NCBI GenBank assembly: GCA_944392145.1
Contig: CALXVS010000002.1
Location: 6,525-70,524 of the forward strand
Direction: 5' to 3'
Length of the DNA stretch: 64,000 nucleotides
Origin: an uncultured Alphaproteobacteria bacterium
Lineage (GTDB): Bacteria > Pseudomonadota > Alphaproteobacteria > CAAHEQ01 > UBA3637
Shown here: piece after piece, positions 30,001 through 33,000 of the stretch
Layout: every line of letters starts with the position of its first letter
How positions within the stretch are numbered: the stretch's first letter is position 1
Made by a program: the position numbers

Positions 30001-33000
30001 TTCTTCCGATATGTTGTGTTGTCGGATGTTTGCACATTTACGACCTTTCCGTCGCTTTGTTCCAATGTGATCATGTTTCCTTTTTGTGAAACAACTTTTC
30101 CTTTAACGGTTTCGGCGGCTTCGGCCAAGTTGACGGCCGCAAAAACACCCAAGGCGGTTACGCTTAATAATAATGCTTTTTTCATTTTTTTCCCTTTCAA
30201 TAAAAAAATAAACAACACAAAAATGATATGGTCGCTTTTTTGATTGGGTCAATACGGTCTTTTTTATCTCGTCAAAAGGGGGTATTGAACCCTGATTAAA
30301 GGGGGCTTATATCTTATGATGATTGCAATGGTGCAATTGTTTTGAATAGGGAGATTTATGATGCAAACAGGAACAAGATATCCGACTTTAGCGTTTCACA
30401 CCGGCGGTGCCGGACAGGCGAATGATGGTATTCCGCCGCAGCCGTTTGAAACTTTTTGTTATGACAGCGCGTTGTTACAAGCGAAAATTCAAGATTTTAA
30501 TGTTGTCCCCTACACTTCGGTTTTACCGCCCGAGTTGTTTGGTAACATCGTTCCGGTTGATCAAGTGGCCCATACGTTTAAACACGGGGCTGTCTTGGAA
30601 GTGATTATGGCCGGTCACGGCGCCCGTTCAATTGATCATAAGGCGATTGCGACAGGTATCGGTGTCGTTTGGGGCAAAGATAAAACCGGTAAGTTTATCG
30701 GTGGTTGGGCAGCCGAATATGTTGAGTTTTTTGATACCTTTATTGACGATGATATTGCTAAAGCACATGCCGAGATGTGGTTAACAAAATCATTGAACCA
30801 TGAGTTGGAAATTCGGGATGTTGAAAAACACAGCGATTTTCAATTTTTCCATAATTTTGTGAATATTGAACAAGCCTTCGGATATTCACTGACGGCTCTT
30901 GGATTTTTGAATTTTGAAACGGCACCTGTCGTTGAATTAAAAAAATAATATTGTATTCGGTCATCAGCGGCTTTTTAAGAATTTAATGTATTTTAAACAC
31001 TTAAAAAAGCCGCTGTTATCTTTTTATAAGGAATAAGCCTATGGTGAAACAAATAAAAACAACAACGGCGTCTGTCGGTCGGCTGGGCGTTTTCGGTCTG
31101 GCTGCCATTGTTGTCAGCTCAATGATCGGCGGCGGTATATTTTCTTTGCCGCAAAACATGGCCCAAAGCGCAGCGGTCGGATCCGTTATTTTAGCTTGGT
31201 TAATCACGGGATTCGGTATTTATTTTATTGCAAATACGTTTCGTATCTTATCTGACACACGTCCCGATTTAACATCGGGAATTTATATGTATTCTCGGGC
31301 CGGTTTTGGTTCGTATATGGGATTTAACATCGGATGGAGTTATTGGCTGTGCCAGATTTTCGGAAATGTCGGTTACGCTGTTATTACGATGGATGCTTTA
31401 AATTACTTTTTCCCCGGTGTTTTTACAGGGGGAAATAATTTGTATTCCATTATCGGTGGATCATTATTTATTTGGTTTTTTAATTTCTTGGTGTTAAAAG
31501 GCGTTAAGCAGGCTGCCTTTATCAACTTGGTCGCAACAATTGCCAAAATTGTTCCATTGATATTATTTGTTTTAATTTTAGGATTTGTTTTTAATATTGA
31601 TAAATTTAATTTTGATTTCTGGGGACATATCCATGGATCAAATCTGGGAGATGTTCCGGACCAGATTAAAAATACCATGTTGGTTACCTTGTGGGCGTTT
31701 ATCGGCATTGAAGGGGCTGTTGTTTTATCCGGACGGGCACAAAATGCTTCGGATGTCGGCAAAGCAACGATCATGGGCTTTTTGGGATGTTTGCTGATTT
31801 ATGTCTTATTATCCATTTTACCGTTTGGATTTATGTCTCAAGAACAATTAGCCGCGATTCCAAATCCGTCAACGGCGGGCGTTTTGGAAAAAATCGTCGG
31901 ACCTTGGGGGGCATGGATGATGAATGTCGGTTTAATTGTTGCTGTTTTGGCCAGTTGGTTGTCTTGGACAATGATTGTGGCCGAGATGCCTTATACCATG
32001 GCAAAGGATAAAACATTTCCCAAGGTATTTGTCAAGGAAAATGCCGCCGGTTCACCCAATGTATCACTGTGGGTAACAAGCGGTATGATGCAGCTTGCCA
32101 TGTTATTGGTTTATTTTTCTAATAATGCTTGGAACACGATGTTGTCAATTACGGGTGTTATGGTTTTACCGGCGTATTTCATGTCGTGCTTATATTTATG
32201 GAAGTTGTGTGCCGATCATGAATTCCCCCAAAATAAAGGGATTTCACGCTTTTCGGCTTTGTTGACCGGTGTTATTGGCTCGTTTTATGCGTTATGGTTA
32301 ATTTATGCCGCGGGATTAAGTTATTTGTTGATGGCGGTTGTCTTTATTGCATTAGGACTGCCGGTTTATATGTGGGCACGGAGGGAAAACAATCCCGGAC
32401 AACCCATGTTAAGTGATCGGGAGTGGATTTTGGCAACATGTCTGATTTTGATCGCGGCGACGGCTATTTACGCTTTTGCGTTTGATATTATTCAACTGTA
32501 AAAGTATCCGTTAAAAAAAGAAAAAGAGCGGGAAACCGCTCTTTTTTTATAATTTGTAAAACGAATACAATTATTGAAGACCTAAATTGGAAGCTGTCAA
32601 CACGCCCATTCCCGATAAAACCGCAAAATAGGCGGAAATACGACTGTGTTTTGCTTGTGTTAAAACAACTTTTGCATTCAAAAGTTCCTGTTCGGCATTT
32701 AAAACATCTAATACTGTGCGGCTGCCGCGTTCTTGTTCGTCACGCACGCCGTCTAAAGCCAGTGCGCTGGCTTTAATGCGGATTTTAGCGGATTGAACAG
32801 CGGCTTTTTGGGCTTCGTGAATATGCCAAGCTTGACGCAATTTTTCAAGAACTTGTCGCTTTATTTGAACGACTTGTTCCCGGACGGCCGATGCTTCAGC
32901 TTTGGCCTTGCGGGTTTGGGCAAAGGCTATTCCCCGATCGTATAGCGGCACATTCAAATAAACCCCGATTCGGCTGTCATTGACTTCATCAATCAGGGGG

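Follow-up and report, generated by a model that had tools for sequence, protein, structure and literature searches.

We identify a Chlamydia-type arginine decarboxylase and antiporter gene pair, aaxB and aaxC, in a 64,000-nucleotide stretch of DNA from an uncultured alphaproteobacterium (positions 6,525 to 70,524 of contig CALXVS010000002.1, assembly GCA_944392145.1; hereafter the window), together with a relative of the chlamydial porin gene aaxA about 3 kb upstream. Taken as a whole, we consider it probable that aaxB and aaxC form a two-gene operon for a cycle of arginine decarboxylation and arginine:agmatine antiport, aided by the porin and serving acid resistance or proton-motive force. 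The same reading holds that the module is old, that it has been passed on vertically within a clade of many species of uncultured gut and rumen Alphaproteobacteria, and that it shares a common origin with aaxABC of the Chlamydiaceae. It is built on homology, catalytic residues, gene linkage, conservation across the clade and host-like composition, all observed here, and from these we predict the substrates, the direction of transport, the physiological role and the contribution of the porin.

We propose that AaxC would carry L-arginine into the cell and agmatine out of it, while AaxB, having cleaved itself between Thr52 and Ser53 to form a pyruvoyl cofactor, would decarboxylate arginine with the use of one cytoplasmic proton per turnover. 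Exchange of arginine (+1) for agmatine (+2) would be electrogenic, so that cytoplasmic pH would rise and a membrane potential would be built. The benefit could be resistance to acid while the cell passes through the stomach or abomasum or lives in acidic parts of the gut and, at milder pH, generation of proton-motive force; an acid-resistance role is plausible. Like AaxA of Chlamydia, the AaxA-like porin would most likely speed the passage of arginine inwards and of agmatine outwards through the outer membrane.

The decarboxylase and its antiporter partner

The first-pass annotation of this DNA had described an open reading frame (ORF) at 30358 as a pyruvoyl-dependent arginine decarboxylase of about 195 residues with a Thr|Ser self-cleavage site, and our analysis bears this out. 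The product of aaxB (30361..30948, plus strand; 195 aa) matches the PvlArgDC family of Pfam (PF01862) with 83.3 bits against a gathering score of 22.7. An alternative start at 30358 would give 196 aa; the second ATG, at 30361, is the likely start because close homologues of the protein have 193-200 aa. Counted from this start, the cleavage site of the proenzyme is T52|S53 (VPYT|SVLPP), and chlamydial AaxB is cut at Ser53 (Giles 2009; PMC2720952). Ser53 is invariant across 17 diverse AaxB homologues. D35 and N47 are also invariant and align with Asp35 and Asn47 of the Methanocaldococcus jannaschii structure 1n2m, and in the same alignment E119 is the equivalent of Glu109; a search of the PDB with the single AaxB sequence returned noise only, and 1n2m was reached with a profile. 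G114 occupies the position of chlamydial Gly115, whose replacement by Arg stops autoprocessing (PMC2720952). By homology, we predict that AaxB is autoprocessed and acts as an arginine decarboxylase with an acid optimum.

Our chlamydial reference is the locus of Chlamydia felis Fe/C-56 (AP006861; here L089, the prefix L marking the loci and contigs compared), whose database sequences were compared with those of the window by direct BLASTP. AaxB is 71% identical to C. felis AaxB over all 195 aa (E 6e-111). An exhaustive search of 1.84 billion cluster representatives with AaxB as query returned just 154 clusters at E <= 0.001, which suggests that the AaxB type is a compact subfamily. In neighbour-joining (NJ) trees with bootstrap, 101 sequences including those of Chlamydia form an AaxB-type clade with 100% bootstrap against seven PvlArgDC outgroups. 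The decarboxylase of the window falls within this clade and apart from other PvlArgDC clades, so its earlier designation as Chlamydia-type stands.

The gene aaxC (31041..32501, plus strand; 486 aa) starts 92 nt past the aaxB stop codon, in agreement with the earlier placement of an AaxC-like antiporter of the APC family within 100 nt of aaxB. Its product matches AA_permease_2 of Pfam (198 bits) and the basic amino acid/polyamine antiporter model TIGR00905 with 570 bits, over the cutoff of 409. AaxC is 59% identical to C. felis AaxC over 485 aa, each protein having 486 aa, and its predicted activity is the exchange of arginine for agmatine. Its nearest solved structures are those of AdiC, and the equivalents of Y93, N101, W202, E208 and W293 are kept, residues that have gating and binding roles in AdiC. 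On the AdiC equivalog model NF007929, AaxC scores 153.6 bits, under the cutoff of 574. Judged from its sequence, AaxC is AdiC-like in its working, yet it is not an AdiC orthologue.

Conservation of the pair was assessed in a GTDB scan of one genome per species, in which 546 species proved to have an AaxB relative. From among these, the 80 best matches, with AaxB 78-91% identical to that of the window, supplied the 80 species loci on which our linkage counts are based. Wherever the locus reaches far enough past aaxB to be informative, aaxC follows directly (77/77 species loci). A terminator scan found no terminator in the aaxB-aaxC spacer. Downstream of aaxC, at 32519..32548, lies a strong bidirectional intrinsic terminator with a 13-pair stem and T-runs on both strands, which is common to aaxC and a convergent tolC-like gene.

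Upstream of aaxB we identify a candidate control region (30306..30337, plus strand) composed of a -10-like box and an inverted repeat. The box, CTTATATC at 30306-30313, is conserved upstream of aaxB, and the repeat, ATTGCA-ATGG-TGCAAT at 30322-30337, follows about 10 nt past it; a ribosome-binding site, GGGAG, stands at 30349-30353 ahead of aaxB. An inverted repeat of the form NNGC-N5-8-GCNN recurs at -35 to -54 in 24/84 loci, where shuffled sequences lead to an expectation of 1.2, and its arms covary (TTGC/GCAA, CTGC/GCAG, TAGC/GCTA, GTGC/GCAC). More distant subclades carry other palindromes at the same spot, arms of at least 7 bp being present in 20% of loci and in 5% of shuffles. The repeat could be the operator of a dimeric regulator or a stem-loop in the 5' part of the mRNA. 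We rejected it as a regulon motif, as the window holds a single exact copy, and a promoter consensus scan did not rise over shuffled expectation. Rfam and tRNA scans of the 64-kb window gave no match.

An AaxA-like porin and the genes between it and aaxB

The gene list of the window was drawn from six-frame ORFs, with families assigned through Pfam and NCBIfam. An outer-membrane porin of the OprB family is encoded at 26116..27360 (plus strand; 414 aa), its end lying 2,997 nt from aaxB. The signal sequence, read from the translation, is a Sec signal peptide ending ...NVSA|AD, and the protein scores 88 bits on Pfam OprB against a cutoff of 22.9. Its top NCBIfam match by far is NF051888 'porin AaxA' (300 bits, E 2.5e-89). 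Its identity is 34% with AaxA of C. felis over 389 aa (E 2e-74) and 42% with the chlamydial-type AaxA of L090. A search with C. felis AaxA as query gave 72 matches, 27 chlamydial-type and 45 other; all 45 non-chlamydial matches are 46-97% identical to porins linked to aaxBC in gut bacteria, in a word-based search that may have missed distant OprB proteins. On the strength of this reciprocal search we regard the window porin as a relative of AaxA rather than a generic sugar porin, and its first identification as an OprB-like, AaxA-like porin is upheld.

Within 8 kb of aaxB, our criterion for linkage, a porin of the AaxA family accompanies aaxBC in 27/80 species loci. At least four layouts are seen among these loci, with the porin gene upstream, downstream of aaxC, divergent, or on the opposite strand beyond aaxC. 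As the linkage outlasts such rearrangement, a functional tie between the porin and aaxBC is well supported.

In the window, aaxA and aaxB are kept apart by four genes, one of which is encoded on the other strand, and by a terminator-like hairpin. The first-pass annotation had called this a broken-up layout and had listed a YbhN-like gene among the interruptions; the intervening genes are as it described, and only the view of that gene as a spacer has to be given up. This gene, flip1 (27357..28301, plus strand; 313-314 aa), encodes a stand-alone membrane protein resembling the flippase domain of MprF (LPG_synthase_TM/YbhN-like). It matches PF03706 of Pfam with 41.9 bits and covers positions 8-304 of the 841 positions of the NCBIfam MprF model (168 bits), without the synthase domain. 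We do not regard flip1 as a spacer because its start overlaps the aaxA stop codon and because its orthologues adjoin aaxA or sit upstream of aaxB in 19/80 species loci, including one whole subclade that has no porin nearby. Flip1 may have a role in the aax system.

The small gene nearest to aaxB (29835..30182, minus strand) encodes a secreted protein of 116 aa from the ATG at 30182, within an ORF of 127 aa (29835-30218). The protein has a signal peptide, a basic TTYRKKK stretch and an acidic C-terminus (EEDDWVEVxY...VYDD), motifs that are kept in 10 family members, and homologues lie upstream of and divergent from aaxB in 25/80 species loci. It matches no Pfam family, and in NCBIfam only weakly the ExtJ model (27.9 bits, cutoff 52.5). 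A periplasmic role in acid stress would be speculation.

The remaining two genes are a pilin-like gene (28535..28900, plus strand; 121 aa) and a gene for an EGF-repeat protein with teneurin-type EGF matches in Pfam (28910..29773, plus strand; 287 aa). The pair is a species-specific insertion. It is present in all four near-identical contigs (L001-L004) and missing between flip1 and aaxB in the relatives L005, L020 and L008. In L005 and L020 (AaxB 87-88% identical) the order is aaxA-flip-aaxB-aaxC with nothing else between. L008, which has the most similar AaxB (91%), carries aaxA-flip-aaxB-aaxC with the small secreted protein gene on the minus strand between flip and aaxB, and the pilin-like and EGF-repeat genes (28535-29773) are the sole difference between its layout and that of the window. 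Composition is slightly off for both genes (EGF gene, z of -2.0 for GC content at third codon positions, GC3; pilin gene, codon distance z 2.7), and we do not consider the pair part of the aax system. Two further pilin-like ORFs, 26-42% identical, lie at 12301-12948 (minus strand). Several further species loci have pilin-like genes close to aaxB as well, and L019 has both pilin and EGF genes.

A terminator-like hairpin, read directly from the sequence, occupies 29790..29818, where the EGF gene and the small secreted protein gene converge. It has the form ACGCCCG-N10-CGGGCGT and lies between an A-run and a T-run; its loop exceeds the limit of the terminator scanner and it is for this reason missing from the scan list. 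Given this hairpin and the opposite orientation of the small gene, aaxA-flip1 and aaxBC appear to be separate transcription units.

Host, age of the module and alternative readings

Proteins identical to those of the window occur on contigs from gut metagenomes. The first-pass annotation had argued that the host is not itself a chlamydia, and near-identical and related contigs do come from metagenome-assembled genomes (MAGs) of gut and rumen Alphaproteobacteria. Among the best 80 of the 546 species nearly all are MAGs named 'Alphaproteobacteria bacterium', from human, rabbit and ruminant gut including the abomasum. Housekeeping genes of the window are of Gram-negative type (DnaE, Lgt, PBP1A, RF2, YhdP, TolC, RNase E). 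Pyruvate formate-lyase and its radical-SAM activase are encoded at 45506-48575 (minus strand) beside a peroxiredoxin, and together with the gut origin of the samples they indicate an anaerobic, fermentative gut lifestyle. The bins that contain four loci with an OprB porin and aaxBC (L008, L013, L018 and L079) carry the names Holdemanella biformis, Desulfovibrionaceae, Lactobacillales and Limosilactobacillus gorillae. Binning error is the probable explanation, the contigs themselves being alphaproteobacterial; the Holdemanella and Lactobacillales labels are implausible because the contigs encode outer-membrane porins.

The first reading of this DNA had also favoured horizontal acquisition of the module by this genome and had proposed a comparison of GC content and codon usage with flanking core genes. 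Recent transfer from Chlamydia or a similar donor would fit the high identity to chlamydial proteins across phyla, the mobile-looking pilin and EGF genes inside the cluster, and an integrase fragment 12 kb away. The comparison returned values typical of the window for all three genes (z from -1.1 to 0.7): GC3 z is 0.1 for aaxA, 0.0 for aaxB and 0.7 for aaxC, and codon-distance z is 0.1, -0.9 and -1.1, indistinguishable from neighbouring core genes. The pilin/EGF insertion is later than the cluster. At least 80 related species have the module, with AaxB 78-91% identical, and Chlamydiaceae form a monophyletic sister group for all three proteins. We consider recent acquisition very improbable. 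That aaxC follows aaxB in every informative locus, that GC3 and codon usage are typical and that Chlamydiaceae form a sister clade together argue that the module is not recent, and on the same grounds the earlier proposal of horizontal acquisition by this genome is not supported. The integrase fragment, an ORF of the phage integrase family at 14280-14927 (minus strand; 215 aa, GC 0.31, GC3 z -3.2), is probably a remnant of a mobile element.

Monophyly of the chlamydial-type loci (L089, L090 and L174) was counted in 200 replicates of the NJ trees and was recovered in 200/200 for AaxA, 169/200 for AaxB and 198/200 for AaxC. In all three trees these loci lie outside the gut sequences and not among them. 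AaxC identity is 63-65% within the chlamydial group and 57-63% between the chlamydial and gut groups. As chlamydial loci differ from one another about as much as from the gut lineages, the divergence of the two groups is old. The lineage of the window is not especially close to Chlamydia and is no closer than other gut lineages.

When the AaxC tree is rooted with the AdiC-like paralogue described below, the root is unstable (L082 in 42%, C. felis in 15%, elsewhere in the remainder). The nearest non-chlamydial neighbours differ by gene, being L079, L085 and L175 for AaxA, Cetobacterium or L086 and L176 for AaxB, and L082 and L087 for AaxC. With an unstable root and neighbours that differ by gene, the trees leave the direction of the ancient transfer undecided; the idea of one consistent donor among the sampled lineages was rejected, as the neighbour varies by gene. 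The published view takes the ancestor of the Chlamydiaceae, after its split from the Parachlamydiaceae, as the recipient (PMC2720952), and our trees, for what they resolve, do not contradict it. We raise, with clear reserve and as a possibility that we think more doubtful than not, that the AAX system of gut bacteria is larger than that of Chlamydia, with flip1 and the small secreted protein as accessory parts and a shared palindromic control region, and that host-associated gut bacteria, Alphaproteobacteria and at least one other lineage with contiguous aaxABC, were the reservoir for aaxABC of the Chlamydiaceae.

The genome also encodes a second arginine system, of the E. coli (AdiC/AdiA) type. 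An AdiA-like decarboxylase dependent on pyridoxal phosphate (PLP) is located at 61120..63447 (minus strand; 775 aa) and has the N, major and C domains of OKR_DC_1 in Pfam; it scores 959 bits on the arginine decarboxylase model NF011603, whose cutoff is 1167, but 658 bits on the LdcC model and 445 on that of ODC. The 3' end of an AdiC-like antiporter gene precedes it at 63461..64000 (minus strand), the gene running off the end of the window. The last 537 bases of the window encode a sequence 100% identical to residues 321-499 of a protein on contig L092, where the full antiporter (499 aa) scores 694 bits, over the AdiC equivalog cutoff of 574. On L092 (4442-9328), which is from the same organism, the order is flip2, AdiC-like antiporter, AdiA-like decarboxylase. 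The product of flip2 (L092:4442-5404) is flippase-like, has 320 aa and is 28% identical to Flip1. Each arginine decarboxylase/antiporter module of this genome is thereby preceded by a stand-alone gene resembling the MprF flippase domain. We rejected such genes as general partners of decarboxylase/antiporter pairs on the loci of Flip2 orthologues: among 80 such metagenome loci, none has adiC, adiA or aax within 6 kb and none is syntenic with L092. The adjacency of flip2 and adiCA consequently seems organism-specific and is weak evidence, and linkage to a flippase-like gene across species holds for flip1 and aax only. As predicted from their families, the two systems are chemically equivalent ones built on unrelated decarboxylases and may serve different pH ranges.

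Several observations weigh against an arginine/agmatine cycle that is aided by the porin and serves acid resistance or proton-motive force. One is this second system, which leaves the two either redundant or with different jobs. Another is that the window porin, at 300 bits, falls under the 600-bit equivalog cutoff of NF051888, a cutoff derived from Chlamydia sequences. In addition, the porin appears not to be co-transcribed with aaxBC in the window. The other two, an ArcD-like score of AaxC and a biosynthetic context of a close AaxB relative, each bring a different function into play.

On the ArcD model TIGR03810, AaxC reaches 532.5 bits, under the cutoff of 591, and its specificity is unproven by sequence. 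AaxC might be an ArcD-type arginine/ornithine antiporter of the arginine deiminase pathway whose adjacency to aaxB is incidental, as its score comes near the ArcD cutoff and far exceeds the 154 bits on the AdiC model. The score nevertheless stays under the curated cutoff, the window ORFs scanned include no arcA, arcB or arcC, and aaxC adjoins aaxB in 77/77 informative species. AaxC is moreover 59% identical over its full length to a chlamydial AaxC whose orthologues exchange arginine and agmatine (PMC2720952). We judge the ArcD-type function improbable.

The biosynthetic context is that of Cetobacterium (L091; JACFAJ010000006.1, 6001-11938), whose decarboxylase is 79% identical to the window AaxB and belongs to the same AaxB-type clade. 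There the gene is followed by genes for agmatine deiminase and N-carbamoylputrescine amidase and is accompanied by neither antiporter nor porin. A pyruvoyl-type histidine decarboxylase (PF02329) is encoded 5 kb from it. Because of this putrescine-synthesis context, the AaxB type of enzyme does not by itself imply acid resistance. Agmatine made by AaxB could likewise be used in the window organism for its own putrescine and spermidine, with AaxC mainly an arginine importer, and PvlArgDC enzymes of archaea and Bacteroides do serve polyamine synthesis. Against this reading, no agmatinase, agmatine deiminase or carbamoylputrescine amidase is encoded by the annotated ORFs of 150 aa or more in the 64 kb of the window, the partner in 77/77 species loci belongs to the exchangers of the basic amino acid/polyamine antiporter family, and linkage of aaxBC to an outer-membrane porin recurs. 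We regard polyamine biosynthesis as unlikely, if a little less so than the ArcD-type function, and continue to favour the arginine/agmatine cycle.

Comparison with known systems

AaxABC has been described as a peculiarity of the Chlamydiaceae, gained horizontally from an unknown source (PMC2720952). Our data suggest that the AAX system is far less specific to Chlamydia than the literature implies, since complete sets of the three genes are frequent among uncultured bacteria of the gut and rumen and are old there. A literature search found no description of aaxABC in gut Alphaproteobacteria or other MAGs; one study uses the names 'aaxB/aaxC' to label annotated genes of Bacteroidota and others (PMC8465708). 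Our results considerably broaden the range over which the system is known, with no new mechanism, and provide outgroups for dating and polarising the chlamydial transfer. They also supply natural variants in which the porin, the flippase-like gene or the small secreted protein is present or absent, as material for dissecting each part. Abundant but uncultured Alphaproteobacteria of the gut may, by converting arginine to agmatine, add to the agmatine of the lumen and be helped to survive gastric passage.

The predicted cycle resembles that of the Escherichia coli AR3 system (AdiA and AdiC), in that arginine would enter, agmatine would leave and one proton would be consumed. It differs in its decarboxylase, as the small, pyruvoyl-dependent AaxB has no relationship to AdiA, a PLP enzyme of 755 aa, and in including a porin; AaxC is about 31% identical to the AdiC-like paralogue of the window organism. 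The archaeal enzyme PdaD (M. jannaschii; PDB 1n2m/2qqd) belongs to the same Pfam family as AaxB and shares the self-cleaving Ser53 and the equivalents of Asp35, Asn47 and Glu109. It is a distant relative (profile E 6.5e-06; 28 bits on the NCBIfam PdaD models) that cleaves Ser52|Ser53, where AaxB has Thr52|Ser53, and it is biosynthetic, without an antiporter partner.

Contiguous aaxABC sets are found outside Chlamydia in L018, L086 and L176. In L176 (ERZ28653917 scaffold_4, 938 kb; 5687-9065) aaxA, aaxB and aaxC are tightly spaced, with gaps of 18 and 7 nt, and are flanked by genes for lipopolysaccharide (LPS) glycosyltransferases, a Slam-like protein and ankyrin repeats. L086 (6906-10042), on a contig labelled Elusimicrobiaceae, is likewise tight. 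L090 (a Logan SRR25820369 contig; protein P0296, named 'Victivallaceae bacterium' at NCBI) encodes an AaxC 63% identical to that of the window. Its gene order, shikimate operon, aaxABC, DAO, mdh, pgi, is that of C. felis, and on account of this synteny with Chlamydia on both sides we rejected 'Victivallaceae' as a further host phylum; probably the label is wrong or the organism is a deep relative of the Chlamydiaceae.

The closest counterpart of the window module is AaxABC of the Chlamydiaceae (C. pneumoniae CPn1033-1031; C. felis L089), which has been characterized by experiment as an arginine decarboxylase with a pH optimum of about 3.4, an arginine:agmatine antiporter and a stimulating porin (PMC2720952). 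AaxC of C. pneumoniae and of C. trachomatis D transports arginine in exchange for agmatine, and aaxABC in Chlamydia is contiguous and co-transcribed (PMC2720952). The C. felis locus consists of aaxA (444 aa), aaxB (195 aa) and aaxC (486 aa). The chlamydial definition of an operon of three contiguous, co-transcribed genes does not describe the window, where aaxA lies 3 kb upstream in a unit of its own with flip1, followed by the pilin and EGF genes, the hairpin and the divergent small gene. Unlike Chlamydia, an obligate intracellular pathogen, the host here is a free-living anaerobic gut alphaproteobacterium. What the two modules share are the same three protein families, with a 195-aa AaxB that cleaves at Thr52|Ser53, a 486-aa AaxC and aaxC right after aaxB, at identities of 34-42% for AaxA, 71% for AaxB and 59% for AaxC (C. 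felis; 63% for L090), and in each of the three gene trees the Chlamydiaceae and the gut lineages are split.

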